This document shows positions 2,312 through 64,000 of a DNA stretch of 64,000 nt, in pieces. The stretch comes from a virus. The number at the start of each line of letters is the position of its first letter. The stretch's first letter is position 1. Both the position numbers and the translations under genes were made by a program. Under the pieces are notes generated by a model that searched no databases, was not told the DNA's origin, and saw only the letters and a program-made list of their open reading frames with translations. The stretch covers positions 1 to 64,000 of IMG/VR virus record IMGVR_UViG_3300045049_000234. One strand, 5' to 3'.

Positions 2312-2444
2312 CGTCCCTCCATTGATAGTCGGGTACTGCCCTCCGGGCGACTAACCCCATCGGGGCCGCGTCCGCCGCCCGTATGCACGCGCTAGTCTGG
2401 CGCGCGGTTCACGGGACGACTTGAGCCCGCCTCGCGGTACTCCG

Positions 2445-2520
2445 CGCGCTAGGCAGGATTCGAACCTGCACGGGGGGCTACCCCAGGGCTGCCAGCGTCT
2501 ACCAGTTCCGCCACTAGCGC
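2445..2520 (-). ncRNA. tRNA-like element (Leu-type D arm) lacking a normal anticodon arm
   Basis: perfect GCGCUAG/CUAGCGC acceptor, GCG-GAACUGGUAGA-CGC D arm, GCAGG-UUCGAAU-CCUGC T arm, but no 5-bp/7-nt anticodon arm. Confidence 0.7.
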
Positions 2521-3497: not shown

Positions 3498-3526
3498 ACA
3501 TTACACGGTCCGGGTAGTAGCGTCAA
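3498..3526 (-). promoter_or_regulatory. sigma70-type promoter, family variant
   Basis: TTGACG-ctacta...-17 nt-TAATGT. Confidence 0.7.
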
Positions 3527-3554
3527 GGGATTTGAGCAGGCCATAAAACACGAA

Positions 3555-3574
3555 ACCCCGGCCGAAGCCGGGGC
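3555..3574 (-). terminator. probable intrinsic terminator
   Basis: ccccggc-cgaa-gccgggg hairpin (UUCG loop on minus) followed by TTTCGTGTTTT. Confidence 0.7.
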
Positions 3575-3635
3575 ATGTCGTGCGCGTCGCAGGTGATCTC
3601 TGGTCCTATTCGAGGATGGGTCGATTGAAATCGGT

Positions 3636-3995
3636 TCAGCCGCAAGCGCACTCTTCTTGGAACGCTCCGCAGTAGTCGCAGCGGCCCGTGCGCTCCGCAT
3701 AAGAGGGGCAGTCACACGGGACGTGGCTGCCGATGATGTAGCGGACACAGTCGGTCGAGTGGCGGGTGTCCTGATTGAGCAGCCGGGCCAGCTCGAAGCT
3801 GTCGCGCCCGGCCCAGATGGTGACCCGACGGCCGGAGAACCCGGCCGCGTCGCGGATGTCCAGCTCGATCGCCATCAGCCGGTCGAACATCCACTCGCGG
3901 CCCGCCACGCGACCGGTGTGGACGTTGCCCAGGTAGTCCGTCGCGTTCACGAGCGCGTCAACGGCGGGGGCGTTGTCGGTGGTGAGGATCTGCAT
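3636..3995 (-). CDS. hypothetical Cys-rich protein
   Basis: MQILTTD..., GAGGAGG RBS, C-terminal Cys cluster. Confidence 0.7.
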   Translation of the reverse strand: MQILTTDNAPAVDALVNATDYLGNVHTGRVAGREWMFDRLMAIELDIRDAAGFSGRRVTIWAGRDSFELARLLNQDTRHSTDCVRYIIGSHVPCDCPSYAERTGRCDYCGAFQEECACG

Positions 3996-4031
3996 TTCGG
4001 GTTCCTCCTCGTGTTCCTGGTTGGTAGTACC

Positions 4032-49288: not shown

Positions 49289-49435
49289 GCCGTGTCCGAG
49301 ATTGAGGTCGGACGATCGTGACGTTAGGTGCTCTGGGCCACTGAGCCACAGGGGACACAGTCCCCCGCCGGGATTCGAACCCGGGTCACCCGCTTAAGAG
49401 GCGAAGTAACGATCATCCTGGGCACCGGACACGGC
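49289..49435 (-). ncRNA. Y RNA-like unit 4 (Lys-CUU anticodon arm)
   Basis: UUCGC-CUCUUAA-GCGGG, CCGGG-UUCGAAU-CCCGG, CGGGGGA/UCCCCUG, GCUC/GAGC. Confidence 0.85.
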
Positions 49436-55023: not shown

Positions 55024-55710
55024 CTAGACTACGGCGTCCACGTTAGCGTTGTCAAGGGGATCGGCCTGCGAAGTCATCCGCATTCGCCTGCCCAGTTCGA
55101 TCCATGCGTGCCGTGGCCACATCGTGCGGCACCCACGGCACTGGATCTTCTGCGCGTACGGGTCCGCCCACAGCGACGTCCCGCACACCATCCCGTCGTC
55201 CGCCGTCTGCGGGCACATCCCGATCATCCGTGACTCGCCGGGACCGTTGACCTGAACGCGGCACGCCGCCGCCCACTCCCGGATGTTCGCCGCGAACGCG
55301 TCCGCCTCGGCGTGCTCATCCGCCGCCCACGTCCAGTTGTTGCGCAGGAACGTCACCGCGCCGACCACCGACTGCTGCACCGTCCCCCGGAACGGTCGCG
55401 CCGTCCATCCGAGCACCATGCGCCAGTCCGATTCCCAGTAGTGCAGGACGCTGACGATGCCGCCGTGCGCCCGCAGGCTCAGCGGCTCCAGCCGAACCGG
55501 CACCGGCGATCCCACGCGCCCCCCGCCGGACACGCGGGCGTCGGTGCGCATCCCCCACGACGGTTCCAGCATCTCCCCCAACGCCTCGTACAGCGCCGGT
55601 ATCGCCGTCAGGTCGGCGTCCACGTGCGCGATGCACAGGCCGCACACGCGGCGGGTGGACGATCGGCGGCAGATCATGCACTGGACGGACACGGGCTGGT
55701 CAGTGAGCAC
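55024..55710 (-). CDS. Zn-binding hypothetical protein of an actinophage family
   Basis: CMIC..CGLC; GMCP...CGTSL...CRGC..W. Confidence 0.7.
   Translation of the reverse strand: MLTDQPVSVQCMICRRSSTRRVCGLCIAHVDADLTAIPALYEALGEMLEPSWGMRTDARVSGGGRVGSPVPVRLEPLSLRAHGGIVSVLHYWESDWRMVLGWTARPFRGTVQQSVVGAVTFLRNNWTWAADEHAEADAFAANIREWAAACRVQVNGPGESRMIGMCPQTADDGMVCGTSLWADPYAQKIQCRGCRTMWPRHAWIELGRRMRMTSQADPLDNANVDAVV
55026..55055 (-). promoter_or_regulatory. sigma70-type promoter, TTGAC-nnn-GCTA family
   Basis: TTGACA-acgcta...-18 nt-TAGTCT. Confidence 0.75.
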
Positions 55711-55744
55711 GGCGCCCCCTCATGGTGTTTTTTATGAGGGTAGC

Positions 55745-56879
55745 GCCGTGCATCCATGCCTTGCGCAACGATGCCGAGGCCAGCGCCGCCATGCCGGGCT
55801 CGGCCGTGCCGTGCCACGTCGTGCGGGCAACCACCGACTAGCCGGTGACCACCCGCACGACACGGAACCATGCGTTGCCAAGCCGCGCGCTGCGCTGCCG
55901 AGCCGTTACCTAGCCGGGCCAAGTACCGCCATGCGAAGCCGGACCATGCCGGGCACTGCGTAGCGCCGCCTCGCGTGCGCGCCGGGGCCTCGAACCCCGG
56001 TGACATCCGGTCGCGCGCCATCCATGCCGTGCCGAGACAGGCCGCGCGTTGCACTGCCTAGCCCGGCCGTCCACCGTCCGTGCCTTGCCGTACCTCGCCA
56101 TGCGCCGCCACGCCGGACTGAGCCCAGTTCTGCCGAGCATGGGAACCTTGCCGCGCCTCGCATTGCCAAGCCGAGCGATGCCCGGTCTGGCCACGCGTCG
56201 CCCCGCCGCGACCCCACGGCGGGGTTGTCCTTGCGTTGCCGAGCCACGCCACGCCTAACCAGGCCACGCCGCGCACAGCCGCGCCCCGACCCCAGAGCGC
56301 GGGTATCCGTGCCTTGCCCCGCGTAGTCATGCGTCACCTTGCCACACGGTGCGGCGCCAAGCCATGCATTGCCCGGCCGGGTCGTGCCGTGCGCAGCTAT
56401 GCCGAGCGCAGCGCAGCCCAGGGACGGCACGCGGTGGTCCCGCGTACCAACCTTGGGTTGCGCCCTCGCCGCTCGGCCATACCCCGCCTAGCATGGCCGA
56501 GCGGCGCCGTGCGGCGTCCATGCCTTGCCTGGCGTTGCCACGCCAGTGCCGCGCTCAGCCGAGCGATGCCGGGGCCAGCCCTGCCATCGCCTCTGCCCAG
56601 CCAAGACAGCGACACACCGGTGATGTGCCACCGCCCCGGCTGGGTCCGTGCCTCGCCGCGCGGAGCCAAACCGGGCCAAACGTTGCCGGGTCGTGCCCCA
56701 CCATGCCGCGACCCCACGACATGACGTCCATGCCTAGCCACGCCAGACCTCGCACAGCATCGCCTAGCGTCGCCAGGTCCTTGCCAAGCCGGGTCGCGCC
56801 GCGCTACGTCCAGCGTTGCCGTGCGCTGCCGCGCCGGGCGTTGCGTTGCCACGCCATCGCATCGCGAAGCCAGGCCACG
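55745..56879 (-). repeat. non-coding GGY-NN pentamer array with interspersed hairpins (candidate guide-RNA array)
   Basis: 5-nt periodicity (plus strand gccgt-gccat-gcctt-gccac-gccaa...) in ~11 tracts; no credible ORF. Confidence 0.8.
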
Positions 56880-57446
56880 TTACGCCGCCGCATCCTCGTC
56901 CGGTGCGATGCCCATGGCGCGCATCCGGCGTTCGATGTCAGCGAGACGGCGATCCGTCGCCTCGCTGTGGTTGCGCGTCTCCGTGCGCAGGTCGTCCAGC
57001 GTCTTCTGCATCCGGGCCGTCTTGGACGCCTGCCGCCGGTTGATCTCCATCTGATAGGCGAACGCGGTGGCGACGGTTTCGAACGCGGCGCGCACCGCCG
57101 GGCTTTCGCCGGACAGATCGACGTTGACCGCCTTCGAGTAGGCGCGCTGAAGCTGCCGACCCGCCTTGCGGCCGTGGCGCCGCGCCAGCCCGAGCTGTGC
57201 GACGGCGTCCACGACGACATAGCCGACGCCGCGTACGGCGTCCACGGCGCGCTTCTCGTCCTCCTCGAACCGCCGCGCGGCGTCCCGGAACGCGACCCGC
57301 AGCGTCTGCCGGTCGCGCACAGGGTCCAGCTCCAGCGCTTCGGCCATCTCCTCGAACGTGATCAGATCGCCGATGGCCTTGGTCCGCAGGAGGCCGTACA
57401 TCACCTTCCAACGGGCGGTGTCGCCGATGGGGGCGAACGGGCTCAT
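56880..57446 (-). CDS. winged-helix plus coiled-coil protein, partner of the RAMP-like gene
   Basis: ITFEEMAEAL...AVRGVGY wing; coupled (ATGA) to 57443-58027. Confidence 0.75.
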   Translation of the reverse strand: MSPFAPIGDTARWKVMYGLLRTKAIGDLITFEEMAEALELDPVRDRQTLRVAFRDAARRFEEDEKRAVDAVRGVGYVVVDAVAQLGLARRHGRKAGRQLQRAYSKAVNVDLSGESPAVRAAFETVATAFAYQMEINRRQASKTARMQKTLDDLRTETRNHSEATDRRLADIERRMRAMGIAPDEDAAA

Positions 57447-58027
57447 GCGTTGTCCGGGATGACGGTGACGCTGCCCGCGAACCGGCCGTACCGGGGGCGC
57501 CAGTTGCCCAGGCCGATCAGGCTCCCGGCGATGTCAACGATCTGTTCGAAGTCGCCGAGGTCGATGATCTGCGTGTCCACGTAGATGATCGCGGAGGTGG
57601 CCCAGTCATGGAAGATCGGCCGCGTGCGGATCACGCGGGCGTTGTTGACCTTCACGGACGCCTGGTGCCGGAACGACTCGTCGGCCCACAACGCCTCCGG
57701 GTCGCGCGGACCCTTGTAGACCAGCGGATTGACGTTGGACAGGACGATGACGCCCGTCTGCACCTTGGGTCCGAGCTTGCGCTTGCGCGCGGCGTCCAGC
57801 AGCGCGCGATAGATGTTGTCGCCCGGCATGTACGGACCCTGCTCCGAGTCGTGGTACAGGCCGCCCAGGAACTCGGCGTGTGCCATTTCCGCGTAGTCGT
57901 CGTCGGTCTTGGACCGCTTGGCGCTGATCTTCTTGATGGACTTCGCGATCGGGTCCAGCGGATTGGACAGCCGCGCGTTGTGTACCAGCAACGGGCACGT
58001 GCCCGTAACATCCAACTTGATATCCAT
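57443..58027 (-). CDS. stand-alone RAMP/Cas7-like protein
   Basis: IKLDVTGTCPLLVH (first strand), PYMPGDNIYRALLDAA (PxIPGSSxKG-like), IGLGNWRPRYGRF (Gly-rich loop). Confidence 0.75.
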   Translation of the reverse strand: MDIKLDVTGTCPLLVHNARLSNPLDPIAKSIKKISAKRSKTDDDYAEMAHAEFLGGLYHDSEQGPYMPGDNIYRALLDAARKRKLGPKVQTGVIVLSNVNPLVYKGPRDPEALWADESFRHQASVKVNNARVIRTRPIFHDWATSAIIYVDTQIIDLGDFEQIVDIAGSLIGLGNWRPRYGRFAGSVTVIPDNA

Positions 58028-58045
58028 GGGTTCCTCTCGATGATG

Positions 58046-58155
58046 ACCGTGCCTCGCGTTGCCAAACCATGCCGGGCGGTGCCGCGCCTGGCATCGCCGT
58101 GCCTCGCGTTGCATTGCGCCGCGACGCCAAACGCAACCGTTGCCACGCCACGCGC
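58046..58155 (-). repeat. GGY-NN pentamer tract in the 5' leader of the RAMP-like gene
   Basis: ~22 in-phase pentamers (plus: gcctc gcgtt gccaa accat gccgg gcggt gccgc gcctg...). Confidence 0.8.
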
Positions 58156-58276
58156 TGATGTTGACCACACTATCACCGGTCATGCCATAAATACAAATCC
58201 GCAACACGCTGACCTGCGGATATCCCAAGTCTTGCCGTGCGGCGCCTGACGCTGCCGCGCATAGCCAAGCGATGCG

Positions 58277-59131
58277 TTACTCTGCGTCGGTGTCGGGTTC
58301 CTCGACGTCTTCGACCACATCGCCGTCCACGATGTCGGCGGCGTCCGTCACTTCGGTGGCGTCGGTGCGCGGGTTGACGTCCAACCGCACGCCGCCGTCC
58401 ACGGCCAGTCCGCGCACGTACTGCGTGGACCGGGGCGCCGTCTTGAGTACATCGATAAGCGTTGTTTTCAACGCCATGGCATCAAAGTGATCACGCCACG
58501 GGCCGACGATCTCGCCATTCTTGCGGGCCATCGCGAACTTGTCGCGGTGTTCCTCGCAGTCCTCGCGTGTCCACGCGGAGAACAGCGGCCGGGGACCGCC
58601 CACCAGATGAACCACCGAGTAGTAATCGGTCACCGGTCCGCGAGCGGCGCGGGGCGCCCGCGACGGGATGTGCTCGATACGGCTGTCCGTTCCGTACCTA
58701 ACGTCGAAGAAATCACTTTCGTAACGCTTGTGCGCCTCGATCGACACCACGCGGTCCGACCGGTACGCCAGGTTGATCAATCCCGGATAGCCGATGATCA
58801 AGGTGGCTTCCATGCGCCCCTTGTTGCGCATCGGCAGCAGCCACGCCTCGCCCAGCACCGCCGGGCGCAGACCGAGCTGTGCGCACGTCATCAGGCCGCC
58901 CAGCACGGACATCGGGTCGCACTCCGCCAGGCGCGGCGTCTTGCGCAGGACCGTCATGGCGTCGCGGGCAAGCTGGACGGCGTCGTGGCCGCGCGGCATG
59001 GCCCGCTCGAAATCCGGGATCATCTTCCTGATCTCGTCGGCCAGGGACCGCCGCCCCTCGTCCGGCGTGCGCGGGGTGTTCGGCGCCAGTTCGCCGCGCT
59101 GCGTGCGCATCCGGTTCGCCAGGTCGTTCAT
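58277..59131 (-). CDS. recT: RecT-family recombinase
   Basis: LAECDPMSVLGGLMTCAQLGL.P, IIGYPGLINLAYRS, W.DHFDAMALKT. Confidence 0.93.
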   Translation of the reverse strand: MNDLANRMRTQRGELAPNTPRTPDEGRRSLADEIRKMIPDFERAMPRGHDAVQLARDAMTVLRKTPRLAECDPMSVLGGLMTCAQLGLRPAVLGEAWLLPMRNKGRMEATLIIGYPGLINLAYRSDRVVSIEAHKRYESDFFDVRYGTDSRIEHIPSRAPRAARGPVTDYYSVVHLVGGPRPLFSAWTREDCEEHRDKFAMARKNGEIVGPWRDHFDAMALKTTLIDVLKTAPRSTQYVRGLAVDGGVRLDVNPRTDATEVTDAADIVDGDVVEDVEEPDTDAE

Positions 59132-59517
59132 GCGGACTCCTCCTCATCCGGCCAGACGATGTGCGCCTGGACCTTGATCGCCTTGCCGTCGCGGATGACC
59201 ACCCGCCAGATGTCTTCGTTGTCCTCGCCGAAGCAGTTGAACCGACCGGTGAACGTGTGATCGGGGAACGCGTCGATGGCGTCCTGTACGGCGCCGGTCA
59301 GGTCGATCTCCCGGTACTCGTCCTGATAGGTGACCTCCAGCCGCGTCGCGTAGCGGCGGGTCAGGATTCCCTGATCCGTTTCGGTGTCCTCTTCGCGGAC
59401 CGCCAGGCTGACCTCCGAGTCCCCGTTGACGAACTCAGAGTCTTTCATTTCGCCCCATTCGATCGGCGGATCGATCTCGATCGAGTCGGGCGGCCATACG
59501 CGGGTGTGATAGCCCAT
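59128..59517 (-). CDS. hypothetical actinophage protein
   Basis: MGYHTRV...I.IDPPI.W.E...CFGEDNEDIWRV. Confidence 0.75.
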   Translation of the reverse strand: MGYHTRVWPPDSIEIDPPIEWGEMKDSEFVNGDSEVSLAVREEDTETDQGILTRRYATRLEVTYQDEYREIDLTGAVQDAIDAFPDHTFTGRFNCFGEDNEDIWRVVIRDGKAIKVQAHIVWPDEEESA

Positions 59518-59524
59518 GGGTTCC

Positions 59525-60529
59525 TCACGTCATGGTTGGGTTGAACCGGCGTGACCGGTAGGCGGTGTAGATGTCGGGGTGTTCCTTGGCGAACCGGTCC
59601 TTGTCGAACTCCACGACGGTGCGCGTGTAGGCGTCGTACAGGCCCGGCTTGTCCTCGCGCAGAGCGTTGACGTTCATCGGGCCGGTGTTGCGCCATGTGA
59701 CCACCGGTTTGTCGTCCACGAGCCCCGCATGCGCGGAGCCGAGCGCGGCGCACACGCGCGCCTGCGCGGCGTCCTGCGCCGCCTTCAGCGCTTTGATCTG
59801 TTCGCCCAGCGACCGGTATTCGGCCAGGTCGTACAGCGCGTCGCGGTCCAACACCACGGCCTCGTCAAGGTCCGCCATCGGATGCAGGCGCTTGATCAGC
59901 TCCGGGTCGGCGGCGTGCATCCCGAACTCCGGCGGCACCTGCGGCAGGACGTGCTGATGCCAGAACTCGTCCTCGATCGCGGTCAGGTCGCTGATCAGCG
60001 ACTCGTCGCGGTCCACCCGCCGCACCACCAGTTCCACGCCGACCAGCGCGGCAATCCACACGTGGGTGCGGCCGGTGACCTTCAGCCCGTGCTGGCCCTG
60101 TACCGCCGCGCGGTCCGTCACCGCGCCGTCGGCCCACTCCGAGGCCATGCGGAAGCTCGTGGTCTTCATCTCCAGCAGCCCGCCGTCCTCGGTCAGGCCG
60201 TCGGGCGTGTAGAGCTGCCAGGGGTTCTCACGCGACTGGAGCAGCCCGCACGTGGTCACGCGTACGCCGGTCACTTCGGTGAACCACTCGCGGATCATCG
60301 GCTCGGCGCGGTGGCCGAACGCCATCGCCGGAGTGTAAGGCATCTCCGGAAGCCGCGACGTCTTGTCCAGGTAGACCTTGAGGCGGGATGAGAACGGGTC
60401 CAGACCGGCCACACCGGGCGCGTCCGATCCGCCGATCCCCTGCTGCCGTGCGCGCAGCCACATGTCCCGTGGGGCGCCGTGGGGCAGCAGCTCCTCACAC
60501 TCGTCCGTGGAGTTCACACCGGGGGTCAT
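59525..60529 (-). CDS. YqaJ/RecE-like exonuclease
   Basis: WLRARQQGIGGSDA, GHRAEP, TPDG, LEMKT, Q.QH.L.VTG, FW. Confidence 0.93.
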   Translation of the reverse strand: MTPGVNSTDECEELLPHGAPRDMWLRARQQGIGGSDAPGVAGLDPFSSRLKVYLDKTSRLPEMPYTPAMAFGHRAEPMIREWFTEVTGVRVTTCGLLQSRENPWQLYTPDGLTEDGGLLEMKTTSFRMASEWADGAVTDRAAVQGQHGLKVTGRTHVWIAALVGVELVVRRVDRDESLISDLTAIEDEFWHQHVLPQVPPEFGMHAADPELIKRLHPMADLDEAVVLDRDALYDLAEYRSLGEQIKALKAAQDAAQARVCAALGSAHAGLVDDKPVVTWRNTGPMNVNALREDKPGLYDAYTRTVVEFDKDRFAKEHPDIYTAYRSRRFNPTMT

Positions 60530-60559
60530 GGCACTATCCTCCCCGTCGGCACCGACACC

Positions 60560-60949
60560 TCACCGCCGGTTGGCGCCGTCCGCAAGGAACGAGTCGGCCA
60601 GCTTCCACACGCCGCACGGCCATGCCACCGGCGCCCCGTCCATCGAACACGCCTGGCACAGCACCGCCGACGGGTAGCCGTTGGCCATCTGCGCGGCGGA
60701 CGGCATCGGCAGGTGGGTCTGGCGCTGCTTGTCCATCAGCGTCCGGATGCGCGCGATCTCGCCCAAGCACATCAGTCCCGCTTTGATGGCGTCGTCCGTC
60801 TTGCGCCCGAAGTCCGCCACGACGGAGTCCGGCACGTCGCGATCACCGGGGTAGCGGGTGCCGATGGTCAGATAGTCCAGGGTGAATCCCATCAGCGCCT
60901 TGGACGCGAACGCGAGGTCGAAGGGCGGCATCGTGGGGGTTTCGGTCAC
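60560..60949 (-). CDS. hypothetical protein
   Basis: AGGAGG RBS; CQAC...WPC motif. Confidence 0.7.
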   Translation of the reverse strand: MTETPTMPPFDLAFASKALMGFTLDYLTIGTRYPGDRDVPDSVVADFGRKTDDAIKAGLMCLGEIARIRTLMDKQRQTHLPMPSAAQMANGYPSAVLCQACSMDGAPVAWPCGVWKLADSFLADGANRR

Positions 60950-60975
60950 GTGATCCTCCTGGGGTGAGGTTCACT

Positions 60976-61004
60976 ATCGTACGCCACCGGATTAGCATGG
61001 TCAA
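60976..61004 (-). promoter_or_regulatory. sigma70-type promoter for the recombination operon
   Basis: TTGACC-atgcta...-17 nt-TACGAT. Confidence 0.75.
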
Positions 61005-61060
61005 CACGACGGCGCCGGAAGGACGGTGTACGTCCTTCCGGCGCCGTCGTGCCCGGCTGC

Positions 61061-62545
61061 CTACCGGTTGCGCCGCCGGTTTGCCGAGCCCAACGGGTTG
61101 AACGGGACGGGGATGTCCTCGTCCTCGCGCCAGTGGAGCTGTCCGACGCTCTTCCCCGACAGGAACGCGTTCCACGCCTTGACGTAGAGGGCGTACTGCC
61201 CCAGCGTGGTCATGCCGCCTCGGGAGTTGGCCCGCTTCCCGGCGGCGGCGGCGTTGCCCAGTACCCGGATGAGCTTGAGTGCGGGGGAATTCGCCGACAG
61301 GTTCGCGCCGGTGATGAGCTGCTGATGCCAGATCCCGTGCGGGCCGCCGGGGTGCTCGCGGTGCGTCATGAACAACGCCGCGTACGCGGCCGTGCGGGTC
61401 ATGTGCACGTGGTGCATCAGCTCGCTTGTCTGGGTGGTGTAGTAGCCCAGGTCGAAGTACGGCCCCTCCTCCCACGGCTCACCGTCGTCGCCGGGGATGC
61501 GCAGCGCGTCTACGATCTCTTCCTTGCTGTACGCGGTGTGCTCCACCTCGTAACGGCCCAGCGGATTTCCGTTGGCGTCCCGGCGGTCCAGGTTCAGGCA
61601 CAGCGTGACGGCGGCGGCCAGCGCGGTCCGCGTCGGCTTGATCTCCTTGCGTTCGCCCTTGTCCGTGGTGACGTACCAGTGGAGGTCCGCCATCGCGATC
61701 GAGTCACCGGCGGTGCGCGTCTTGCCGTCGTCCATCGCGAAGAACGCCGCCGGGTCCATCCCGTACGTGGCGTAGATAGTCAGATTGAACCCCGCCTTGA
61801 TGGCGGCGAGGAACCGCTGGCGGCCGTCCAACACGCATCCGTGCCAGTCGATCGCAACGCCCTGATGCGTAACGCGCCACTGTCCCCGCCGCATGCGGCC
61901 TTCGTACTTCTCGACGGTGGAGCGCTGCGGCGGGCGCGTGTTGCACACGCTGACATCCAGCAGCTCCGCCATCTGGGCCGGGGTGAAGGTGACCAGGCGC
62001 GGCGGCTGGAGCACCGGGTAGCGCTTGTTGCCGACCCCCGGCTGCTGCGTCAGCGCAGCGGTGACCGCGTCGTTGACCGCCTGCTGATCGAGTTCGTCTT
62101 TGCTCATCACGGGTGCGCCGTTCATGTTTCGACGTTCGGGGGACTCCAGTGTGGCCTTGAGCGCCGCCACCGATGCCGGGATCGACACCTGCTCGGCGGC
62201 GCGCCTCTCCGCCTCGGCCAGGAGCTTGTCGTTCCTGTTGCGGTCCGCCAGCAGCGCCACCTTGCGCGGGTCGGGCTTGTCGTCCACCGGGCGCTCGTCC
62301 TTCCTCGGGGTCCTGCGCTGGACGCGGAAGTCAACGCCCGTGGTTCTGCGCAGATCCGCGATGGCGTTGTTCAAGCTGCGCGCGGACGAGGGTGTGGCGG
62401 AGAACACGCCGTACATCCGCTCGCCGCCGTCCTCTTCATCCCGTGTGACCTTCCAGTGGCCGCTGCCGTTGAGTTCACACGTGAACCCGGCGGCGCGGAT
62501 GCGGTCCACCAGGTCGAGCGTGTCCTGCGTACTGCCTTTGGTCAT
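61061..62545 (-). CDS. ParB/Srx-like protein with N-terminal HicA-like domain
   Basis: NTRP...VEKY...M..GQW..THQGVAID..G.VLDGRQRFLA, MDDGKTRT; N-terminal GSGHWKV...FSATPS...NN.IADLRR. Confidence 0.75.
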   Translation of the reverse strand: MTKGSTQDTLDLVDRIRAAGFTCELNGSGHWKVTRDEEDGGERMYGVFSATPSSARSLNNAIADLRRTTGVDFRVQRRTPRKDERPVDDKPDPRKVALLADRNRNDKLLAEAERRAAEQVSIPASVAALKATLESPERRNMNGAPVMSKDELDQQAVNDAVTAALTQQPGVGNKRYPVLQPPRLVTFTPAQMAELLDVSVCNTRPPQRSTVEKYEGRMRRGQWRVTHQGVAIDWHGCVLDGRQRFLAAIKAGFNLTIYATYGMDPAAFFAMDDGKTRTAGDSIAMADLHWYVTTDKGERKEIKPTRTALAAAVTLCLNLDRRDANGNPLGRYEVEHTAYSKEEIVDALRIPGDDGEPWEEGPYFDLGYYTTQTSELMHHVHMTRTAAYAALFMTHREHPGGPHGIWHQQLITGANLSANSPALKLIRVLGNAAAAGKRANSRGGMTTLGQYALYVKAWNAFLSGKSVGQLHWREDEDIPVPFNPLGSANRRRNR

Positions 62546-62637
62546 GGGTCCTCCACGGTGTTGCCGGTTCCGGGCGCCGCCGCCGGTAGGATCGGGCGGC
62601 GTTCCCGGACGGTCGGTTCCTCGCGACCGCATCCACT

Positions 62638-62666
62638 ACCGTACGCGTATGGGTTAGCGTAGTCAA
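62638..62666 (-). promoter_or_regulatory. sigma70-type promoter, leftward half of a divergent pair
   Basis: TTGACT-acgcta...-17 nt-TACGGT. Confidence 0.8.
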
Positions 62667-62679
62667 GCGTCAATGTGTG

Positions 62680-62708
62680 TTGACCCTACTATGTCCGGGA
62701 CGTACCCT
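62680..62708 (+). promoter_or_regulatory. sigma70-type promoter, rightward half of a divergent pair
   Basis: TTGACC-ctacta...-17 nt-TACCCT. Confidence 0.7.
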
Positions 62709-62743
62709 AGTGATGATCCCGACCACGTACGGAAAGGGGACAC

Positions 62744-63274
62744 ATGACCGCGCGTGAGAACCGCCTGCCCCACCGGGGTGTTCTCGCCGGTGGCCGCGAA
62801 CTGGCCGCATACGCCGAGGTCACCCCGGAGCGGGCTCGCCAGCTCACCCTCAAGAAGTGGTGGACGCTGGAACCGCTCGACTTCATCGGCGGCCGGTTCG
62901 TCTACAGCTACCCGGCGGCCGTCCGGCTGCTGAACGACCACGGCTACCCGCGCCGCCTGCATCCGGATTTCCCGCCGCCGGTGCGCGCCCGCCGGGGCCA
63001 CGCCGCGCAGGAGAACCCGCCCAAGCGCGAACACCGGGGGGTGCTGGCCGGTATCGGCGAGATCGCCCGCACCGCGTGCGTTCCCACATCCCGCGCCACC
63101 AAGATGACGCAGGAGAAGTGGTGGACCGCGCAGCCCCTGGACCATCTGGCCGGAGGCACCGTGTATTCATATCCTGACGTTGCGAAGCTCCTGGAAGACC
63201 AGGGCTACCCGCGCCGGTACAAGACGATCGGCGCCCGGATCGAGGCGCAGAACAAGGTCACTCGCGCAGGATGA
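62744..63274 (+). CDS. tandem-duplicated AlpA/Xis-like winged-HTH regulator
   Basis: two copies of HRGVLAG..E.A....V...RA...T..KWWT..PLD...GG..VYSYP....LL.D.GYPRR. Confidence 0.75.
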   Translation: MTARENRLPHRGVLAGGRELAAYAEVTPERARQLTLKKWWTLEPLDFIGGRFVYSYPAAVRLLNDHGYPRRLHPDFPPPVRARRGHAAQENPPKREHRGVLAGIGEIARTACVPTSRATKMTQEKWWTAQPLDHLAGGTVYSYPDVAKLLEDQGYPRRYKTIGARIEAQNKVTRAG

Positions 63275-63725
63275 GCGAATAGCGCCCGTCGTCGGTCAGC
63301 AGGACCGGCCCCGCCATGGCGCGAACGTACACCGGCGTGCGGGCCGGTTCCTCATGCGCGCCCAGCAGCCATCCCCGCGCGTACGCCTCGCGCCGGTTCG
63401 ACTCGATCCACCCGTGACATCCGGTGGTCCCGCTGCCGCACACGTACATCAGATTGCTGGCCCGGTTGACCGCCGGATCGGTGGTCCCGCCCGCCCGGCG
63501 CGGCTTACGGTGGTGCAGCGACACCGCACCGGCGCCCAACGGCGCCCCGCACCGTTCGCACCGCCCGCCGCACCGTTCCCACACCATTTCGCGTACGTCC
63601 CGGCTCGGTCCGGTGTAGCGGCGCGGCTTGGCGCCGTCGGCGCGGTGCGCGCCCTTGGACTTCAGCGGGGTGCGGCGGACAAGTCCTCTGCGTCGCGGGT
63701 CTCCGCCCGCCGTTCCCGGTTCCAC
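63258..63725 (-). CDS. HNH endonuclease
   Basis: VWERCGGRCERC, LHHRKPR, NL..VCGSGTTGCHG.IE; start uncertain. Confidence 0.8.
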   Translation of the reverse strand: MEPGTAGGDPRRRGLVRRTPLKSKGAHRADGAKPRRYTGPSRDVREMVWERCGGRCERCGAPLGAGAVSLHHRKPRRAGGTTDPAVNRASNLMYVCGSGTTGCHGWIESNRREAYARGWLLGAHEEPARTPVYVRAMAGPVLLTDDGRYSLILRE

Positions 63726-63925
63726 ATCCGACCCCCCGCCACGCCGATGAACTTGCGGTCCCGCCGCGCCCAGTCTAGACACTGGCGCGAGACGGGACAC
63801 CCGTGGCAGTAGCCCATCGCCGCGACGCGGTCCGCCTCGTTCTCCCCGTCGAACAGCCACGGGTCGGCGCCCCGGCACGCGGCGTCGGCGCGCCAGGGCT
63901 CCCGTCCCATCGCGATCGTGATCAC
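63662..63925 (-). CDS. whiB: WhiB-family transcription factor
   Basis: W...AACRG.DP.LF...CHGCPVSRQCL.WA...GVAGG. Confidence 0.9.
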   Translation of the reverse strand: MITIAMGREPWRADAACRGADPWLFDGENEADRVAAMGYCHGCPVSRQCLDWARRDRKFIGVAGGRMWNRERRAETRDAEDLSAAPR

Positions 63926-64000
63926 GCGTCCGCCGCCGTGCGCGCCTTGCGGATCTGCGCGCGGGCGCGGGCGATGTGCACACGCACCTGATCCGGCCGT

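Follow-up and report, generated by a model that had tools for sequence, protein, structure and literature searches.

The window analysed here comprises the first 64 kb of the 111,179-bp IMG/VR record IMGVR_UViG_3300045049_000234, a virus with direct terminal repeats, 67.6% GC and an estimated completeness of 100%. On its minus strand, read throughout from high to low coordinates, lies a locus made up of a gene for a 194-amino-acid RAMP (Cas7-like) protein (vipr, 57443-58027), a 188-amino-acid gene resembling vap1 (56880-57446), and non-coding arrays of five-base GGY-NN repeats on both sides of the gene pair. We consider this, at a probability of roughly 0.9, to be a VIPR (Viral Interference Programmable Repeat) locus that resembles type II and is carried by a complete phage of 111 kb and high GC content.

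VIPR systems consist of Vipr, a minimal RAMP protein, usually one vap gene, and vrRNAs of 9-16 YNNGG repeats; the protein holds GGY, and the NN bases pair with DNA under a rule that skips one nucleotide (nt) (10.64898/2026.04.26.720920, 10.64898/2026.04.26.720927). The discovery (10.64898/2026.04.26.720920) and 21 cryo-EM structures (10.64898/2026.04.26.720927) have been reported separately, and a further report deals with competition between phages and satellites (10.64898/2026.10.15.759431). An earlier note on this DNA had proposed a guide code in which the protein holds a constant triplet and displays a variable dinucleotide, for example against rival phages, and had pointed to a resemblance to VIPR. 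The proposed code is the published VIPR mechanism, and the resemblance is borne out by the full-length homology described below. The novelty that the note implied is not supported, as VIPR was already described in 2026 preprints, and the locus is an unusually large further example. What goes beyond the text of the VIPR papers is the size of the array and, as computational leads, a clade-wide tRNA-like linker and a co-variation of an Asp/Asn residue with the first repeat base (G1).

The Vipr protein and its accessory partner

The open reading frame at 57443-58027 is real, and its product contains the RAMP hallmarks listed in the earlier note (PLLVH, PYMPGDNIYRAL and the G-loop GLGNWRPRYGRF). 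A phmmer search of the PDB aligned residues 4-186 with residues 5-188 of 36pp_D, the 'SUSP1 Vipr protein' (E = 1.1e-36); identity to the SUSP family was 37%, and the product also matched phrog_4652 (E = 1.4e-57). Neither this protein nor the vap1-like product matched Pfam. Foldseek, suggested in the note as a check for the RAMP fold, returned Csm3, type VII Cas7 and Cmr4 as the top neighbours of the AlphaFold model (model confidence pLDDT 84, pTM 0.80); for Csm3 and Cas7 the probabilities were 0.99-1.0 and the TM scores 0.4-0.5. Of the six SUSP1 Vipr residues named as holding GGY and the skipped base of the target, five are conserved, with H17, K33, R138, W178 and R179 kept as H16, K32, R136, W176 and R177; the sixth, D177, is N175 here. 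By homology, the 194-amino-acid protein is a Vipr, a minimal Cas7-like RAMP. Searching with this protein by tblastn found relatives in 130 phage records, with SUSP2 and the Felixounavirus group among them.

The earlier note had called the RAMP gene stand-alone, which is not strictly so, because the 188-amino-acid gene at 56880-57446 lies between it and the long array. This gene overlaps vipr by 4 nt (ATGA), and the two form a minimal vipr-vap operon. The vap1-like product is homologous to the SUSP2 gene downstream of vipr (27% identity, E = 2e-6), to the 'DNA binding protein' gp77 of Gordonia phage MakoManhole (31%, E = 3e-15) and to gp42 of the Mycobacterium abscessus prophage prophiBWHA-1 (E = 8e-12), has a further homologue in the IMG/VR locus L027, and matches phrog_5926. 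In its structural model (pLDDT 81), a winged helix at the N terminus precedes a long coiled coil; the winged helix weakly matches those of GntR, MarR and OmpR. The type II vap genes, named vap1 in SUSP1, are predicted DNA binders (10.64898/2026.04.26.720920, 10.64898/2026.04.26.720927), a description that the winged-helix model fits.

The related loci comprised 59 from IMG/VR, 26 from metagenomes, 68 from cellular genomes and four from GenBank phages encoding relatives. The adjacent pentamer arrays, whose lack in homologues would have told against the reading in the earlier note, were present, on the coding strand beside vipr, in all 158 loci with a recognisable Vipr. The nearest cellular Viprs belong to Streptantibioticus, Streptomyces, Planomonospora, Streptosporangium, Mycobacterium and Gordonia; the closest Viprs, at 50-59% identity, are scattered among Streptomyces, Streptosporangiales, Mycobacterium and Gordonia, and the host of the phage is probably an actinomycete. 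In MakoManhole (locus L001, PQ184807.1) the VIPR genes are gp78/gp77 and in prophiBWHA-1 (locus L004, OQ417975.1) gp43/gp42, labelled either hypothetical or 'DNA binding protein'; the arrays of both carry tRNA-like linkers. As cultured or typed actinophages, these two would offer convenient experimental models.

Pentamer arrays and guide anatomy

Period-5 autocorrelation reached 0.39-0.52 across 55701-56900 and 58001-58200, against a window mean of 0.27 (sd 0.045), and nowhere else in the 64 kb was it raised, apart from a borderline blip at 63501-63700. At that site the signal is slightly up (0.39-0.40) with no GGY array or tandem repeat, and may be due to chance. The period-3 signal in the array regions was below the window mean, which argues that they are non-coding. 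A Viterbi parse recovered 197 GGY-NN units in about 17 tracts, 15 of them downstream of the genes and two to three at 58044-58286, and no second multi-tract GGY array occurs in the entire 111-kb genome.

To avoid circularity, unit composition was measured on windows picked by positions 2-3 alone. Position 1 was G in 0.65 and C in 0.23 of units, position 2 was G in 0.87, position 3 was C in 0.81 and T in 0.11 (Y 0.92), and the NN positions were near uniform. Only about half of the units contained a perfect GGY, and Tandem Repeats Finder did not detect the pentamer array. The NN pairs averaged about 45% GC in a genome of 68% GC. Autocorrelation and composition thus agree with the earlier note, which had described a five-base periodicity reading GGY, often NGC, on the coding strand. 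Its account of the flanks was right as to extent (about 110 nt upstream and 1.12 kb downstream); the long array, however, does not adjoin the RAMP gene.

The downstream vrRNA array (55756-56876, minus strand, Viterbi parse) consists of 15 in-phase tracts that make up about 13 guide units, each of 9-22 pentamers, and the number of guides in the array is put at about 15. Its detected length of 1119 nt is the largest among the 158 Vipr loci (median 195, next largest 811). Numbered in reading order, d1 (56876-56781; 4 + 15 pentamers with a 1-nt slip) is followed by GGACCU, d2 (56774-56730; 9 pentamers) by a 22-nt hairpin, d3 (56707-56648; 12 pentamers) by a 45-nt hairpin, d4 (56602-56520; 2 + 8 + 5 pentamers with small interruptions) by GGACGC, and d5 (56513-56469; 9 pentamers) by a 50-nt hairpin. 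Both d6 (56418-56309; 22 pentamers) and d7 (56285-56231; 11 pentamers) end at a 23-nt hairpin, d8 (56207-56143; 13 pentamers) at CCA (3 nt), d9 (56139-56080; 12 pentamers) at GGACGGUGGAC (11 nt), and d10 (56068-56024; 9 pentamers) at a tRNA-like linker (see below). A 1-nt slip (C) separates d11 (55975-55906; 14 pentamers) from d12 (55904-55855; 10 pentamers), which leads into a degenerate tRNA-like linker, and d13 (55825-55756; 14 pentamers) runs into a terminal hairpin.

The linkers are heterogeneous (6 to 50 nt), with a GGAY start as their sole common feature. Three of 22-23 nt (56708-56729, 56286-56308 and 56208-56230, all minus strand) have the common form GGAY-N9-10-(S)UGGGGUCGS with a small hairpin. 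The 45-nt linker (56603-56647) and the 50-nt linker (56419-56468) fold with minimum free energies (MFE) of -22.6 and -26.0 kcal/mol. The long hairpin that closes the array (55703-55754, minus strand; MFE -32.6 kcal/mol) is possibly a terminator, with no U-tract on the minus strand; its sole Rfam match was a chance-level microRNA. The gene after the array begins at 55710.

Nine guide units close with GGC-A-(Y/A) and then GGA-(Y), much as the guides of SUSP2 close with GGUAU and then GGG or GGA; the tails of SUSP2 (GGGUAG...) have no counterpart among the linkers of this array. The Y pocket of Vipr sterically excludes purines (10.64898/2026.04.26.720927), and for this reason a GG-purine triplet may mark the end of filament growth. 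As there is no room for a promoter between guides, the simplest reading is that the array is probably transcribed as one long precursor and later cut into guides.

Upstream of vipr, a vrRNA tract of 3 + 19 GGY-NN units (22 in all, with a 1-nt slip at 58139) occupies 58044-58154 on the minus strand, as delimited by the Viterbi parse and the period-5 signal, and stops 16 nt short of the vipr ATG. An AT-richer linker of 77 nt (58155-58231) separates it from a distal tract of 11 weaker units, mostly CGC/NGC (58232-58286, minus strand, Viterbi parse), which the earlier note had missed. The first units of this distal tract overlap the end and stop region of a RecT gene (58277-59131, minus strand; Pfam RecT, E = 3e-38). 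Together with a YqaJ-like exonuclease, RecT forms a recombination module (58277-60529, minus strand) directly upstream of the VIPR locus.

Relation to known systems and probable targets

The closest VIPR type is type II, because of the Vipr homology, the vap1-like partner and the arrangement of one upstream guide plus a downstream array. As in the type II VIPRs of Escherichia phage SUSP1 and a Pseudomonas fulva prophage, a homologous Vipr gene is directly followed by a vap1-like gene, and the guides are phage-borne GGY-NN repeats on the coding strand with no self-targets; SUSP1 also has a single upstream vrRNA and a downstream array. The differences are substantial: type II VIPRs have 4 guides, whereas there are about 15 here; Asp177 reads G1 in the former, whereas here the residue is Asn and the repeats follow NGC-NN, position 1 of which tolerates C; and the setting here is a high-GC actinophage. 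The SUSP1 clade has an invariable ~40-nt 3' pseudoknot tail after each tract, not found here, and the promoter-like spacers between type II guides are replaced by direct GGAY junctions, small hairpins and a tRNA-like minihelix. Other VIPR arrays are staggered or overlapping, or are interspersed with hammerhead ribozymes (10.64898/2026.04.26.720920). Both kinds resemble this one in packing guides head to tail, to be cut from a precursor, and some junctions here are only 1-11 nt, as in staggered arrays; hammerhead arrays cleave themselves, whereas a minihelix spacer would depend on host enzymes.

With the class 1 CRISPR proteins Cas7, Csm3 and Cmr4, the Vipr shares the RNA recognition motif (RRM)/RAMP fold, G-loop and thumb and, by analogy, would share fixed-step polymerisation along a guide with bases flipped out at regular intervals. 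This operon, however, contains vipr and vap only, with no Cas5, Cas6, Cas10, large subunit or adaptation genes (cas genes elsewhere in the genome were not screened), and CRISPR repeats are missing too; at 55600-64000 no array of tandem or direct repeats was found. VIPR further differs in its 5-nt step, with three bases hidden and two shown, and in placing constant parts in every guide unit rather than at the ends only.

By homology, the non-coding DNA of the locus encodes, on the vipr strand, about 15 vrRNAs of 9-22 GGY-NN pentamers. Read through the biochemistry and cryo-EM of SUSP1, one Vipr protomer per pentamer would flip out and hold the GGY triplet and display the NN pair. The array transcript would be cut into guides set apart by very short junctions, small hairpins and one tRNA-like minihelix, most of them with ends at GGC-A-Y then GGA-Y that place a purine in the pyrimidine slot. 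The resulting filament would read double-stranded DNA as NN-skip-NN and block transcription of its target, and the likely targets would be rival phages, prophages or satellites in the same host.

The earlier note had suggested concatenating the NN dinucleotides and searching phage and host genomes, and such searches gave no target. Within the phage's own 111-kb genome, no guide matched above shuffled guides at skips of 0-3; own-genome matches are likewise absent in other VIPRs (10.64898/2026.04.26.720920, 10.64898/2026.04.26.720927). A 16/18 match in the vap gene of L027, the sole excess in 1 Mb of related loci, was rejected on two grounds: its skipped base is at position 1 of the codon, and its statistic was borderline. 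We also considered whether the guides serve in temporal control or host takeover, acting on genes of the phage itself or of the host and not on competing elements. The lack of a competitor target is compatible with this, fifteen guides are many for one rival element, and satellites can aim vrRNAs at host decoy sites (10.64898/2026.10.15.759431). We nevertheless regard such regulation as unlikely: no self-match exceeded shuffled guides under any skip rule, and the natural targets published for type II VIPRs are satellites and prophages (10.64898/2026.04.26.720920, 10.64898/2026.04.26.720927).

Several observations weigh against the assignment as an active VIPR locus aimed at competitors. Transcription, processing, ribonucleoprotein formation and silencing are read across from a homologue of 37% identity. 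A consensus scan of the minus strand found no sigma-70-like promoter and no canonical terminator, and the SUSP1-type pseudoknot tail was not seen among the linkers. The log-likelihood of the NN pairs was highest under codon positions 1-2 (-549, compared with -627 for positions 2-3, -655 for positions 3-1 and -588 for bulk dinucleotides), but a uniform distribution fits their composition equally well, which makes the codon argument weak. Seven 9-unit seeds (18 specified bases) gave 0-3 matches each in IMG/VR, a chance-level result; nearly all of these lay in contigs of 36-45% GC and one in a contig of 67% GC, and their extensions were at chance level. One 14-unit guide, allowing up to 3 mismatches, matched nothing in 406 cellular genomes (401 actinomycete and 5 host-candidate). 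As exact-seed or small-sample searches, these do not show that targets are absent.

Experimental work on VIPR, a discovery only months old, rests on two proteobacterial systems (10.64898/2026.04.26.720920, 10.64898/2026.04.26.720927), and the present locus places the family in a large high-GC phage with a 15-guide arsenal. Comparison with about 160 relatives yields two leads: guide precursors may mature through tRNA-like handles that borrow host tRNA enzymes, and the repeat consensus may be determined by one residue of the G-loop. These leads matter for turning VIPR into a compact, programmable DNA-binding tool and for its annotation in actinophage genomes, where the genes are now labelled 'hypothetical'.

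tRNA-like linkers and the first repeat base

The 48-nt linker after d10 (56023-55976) reads GGAU, GGCGCGC, a 13-nt connector, CGGGG-UUCGAGG-CCCCG, GCGCGC and A, and the following tract begins at the very next base (CGCGA). Its portion at 55976-56019 (minus strand) forms a minihelix in which an acceptor stem is stacked on a T arm and followed by a discriminator A; the MFE fold gives the same two helices. The element is thus the acceptor stem and T arm of a tRNA only, with no D or anticodon arms. ARAGORN called no tRNA at the linker, its calls being limited to a cluster of four phage tRNA genes at 1880-2860, one of which (2444-2520, minus strand) has an unassigned four-base anticodon call (ctgg). 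Rfam returned a weak sub-threshold match to mascRNA-menRNA (18.9 bits) and no tRNA match at this linker, nothing in eight related loci, and no family for the linkers. Near-identical designs occur in L065 and MakoManhole.

Covariance models were built to follow this element through the related loci. The first (R1), from seven copies of equal length (42 nt), gave 37 matches at E <= 0.02 in 97 loci; the second (R2), from those 37 matches with the window sequence left out, gave 71 matches at E <= 0.01 in 37 of 100 related loci and scored the window minihelix at 30.3 bits (E = 2.5e-6). A degenerate second element (55820-55858, minus strand; R2 16.2 bits, E = 0.009) has an acceptor-like stem, a GUGGUC connector and no T-loop consensus; its inner 29-nt hairpin folds at -12.3 kcal/mol. 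All 71 matches and the window copy (72/72) lie on the vipr strand inside arrays, up to five per array; none was found in SUSP2, Medea1 or the proteobacterial loci. In an alignment of 50 matches, which was model-fitted and so favours the structure, 95.7% of cells were paired (61% in shuffles, 39-54% with slid partners), double-change cells numbered 170 compared with 52 in shuffles, and 11 of 12 pairs covaried; covariation of the T arm was also recovered in an independent RNAalifold run. A clean tract begins within 15 nt downstream of 36 of the 72 elements, at offset 0 in 19 of these 36, and its first unit is CGC in 18; a discriminator A is present in 51 of the 72. The first minihelix model also gave a weak match (21.2 bits) at 49361-49401 (minus strand), unrelated to the VIPR locus.

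Integration into tRNA genes is common among phages and leaves them with the T-arm and acceptor 3' part, and this phage has real tRNA genes, so the linkers might be leftovers of tRNA genes or attachment sites and not functional parts of the array. This is very improbable. An attachment remnant would be expected in single copy, with no 5' strand and no covariation, whereas the linkers are closed minihelices with their own 5' acceptor strand, occur repeatedly within an array, always sit between pentamer tracts and on the vipr strand, show compensatory changes in both stems, and attract no ARAGORN tRNA call.

A tRNA-shaped element between RNAs offers RNase P and RNase Z sites that release its neighbours, as in the mascRNA of MALAT1, mitochondrial tRNA punctuation and engineered polycistronic tRNA-guide-RNA arrays, and acceptor/T-arm minihelices are substrates of RNase P, RNase Z and the CCA-adding enzyme alike. 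The elements described here differ from these precedents in being the top half of a tRNA only, about 42 nt long. They probably provide a structured 3' tail and serve host enzymes of tRNA processing (RNase P and/or RNase Z) as a handle. They could define guide ends, replace the SUSP1 pseudoknot as a ~40-nt 3' tail, or both, and a minihelix may stay on its guide as a 3' cap instead of being cleaved off. We found no literature pairing vrRNA with tRNA-like elements, and the main text of the VIPR papers, supplementary figures and data aside, does not mention tRNA or RNase in this context.

The fuller proposal, that actinobacterial VIPR arrays are punctuated by ~42-nt tRNA top-half minihelices (with a UUCGA loop) that bring in RNase P, RNase Z or the CCA-adding enzyme of the host for cutting and capping the guides, and that an Asp-to-Asn change co-evolved with the first repeat base (G relaxed to C or Y), is tentative, and we rate it a little below even odds. 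Two points count against it. The window contains one clean tRNA-like element and most junctions are of other kinds, so processing cannot rest on the minihelix alone; with one or two of about 14 junctions tRNA-like, the other junction types must also be processed or tolerated. In addition, some Asp-type loci have a relaxed G1 (L015 0.52, L067 0.65, L007 0.70), and Asn is therefore not the sole route to such relaxation. If the proposal is true, the minihelices do in nature what tRNA-guide-RNA arrays were engineered to do and add a third solution to the pseudoknot tails and hammerhead spacers, and the Asp/Asn-G1 co-evolution points to a simple rule by which the repeat accepted by a Vipr could be re-tuned.

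The second part of the proposal concerns the residue aligned with SUSP1 D177, which hydrogen-bonds G1 and whose alanine mutant abolishes silencing (10.64898/2026.04.26.720927). Among 150 Viprs this residue was D in 142, N in 4, E in 3 and T in 1. The four Asn-type loci are the window (G1 0.65, C1 0.23), L065 (0.59, 0.28), L079 (0.56, 0.36) and L080 (0.00, 0.72), the first three with no other change and the last with the H17 equivalent also replaced; among 76 loci ordered from the lowest G1, they rank 6, 5, 4 and 1, respectively. The mean G1 of Asp-type loci was 0.84, and Asn-type loci differed from the others with a Mann-Whitney p of 7e-4, not corrected for phylogeny. FastTree placed the window and L065 as sisters, with L079 and L080 each among Asp-type neighbours, suggesting about three independent origins of Asn at this position. 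The Asn-G1 link across Viprs is suggestive, and Asn175 probably accounts for the tolerance of C at the first repeat position.

The slimmest chance falls to the reading that the pentamer tracts are decaying or inert simple sequence beside a relic Vipr gene with no RNA-guided activity: the many degenerate units, the relaxed G1 and the replacement of a residue needed for silencing in SUSP1 would suit it, but both reading frames are intact, all other RNA-contact residues are kept, G2 (87%) and Y3 (92%) are held over 200 units while NN is free, tract ends have a common motif, and Asn recurs in three lineages with the same repeat change, which is a signature of co-adaptation and not of decay.

The discovery paper lists 'YNNNG' as an alternative repeat consensus (10.64898/2026.04.26.720920). 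This is the same relaxation as seen here, and we found no statement tying it to the D177 residue. The most extreme case of co-variation is L080 (metagenome contig ERZ1292625...6095), in which the H17 and D177 equivalents are both N and the array beside vipr (3501-4031) is built of YGY-NN repeats with T at position 1 in 0.22 of units.

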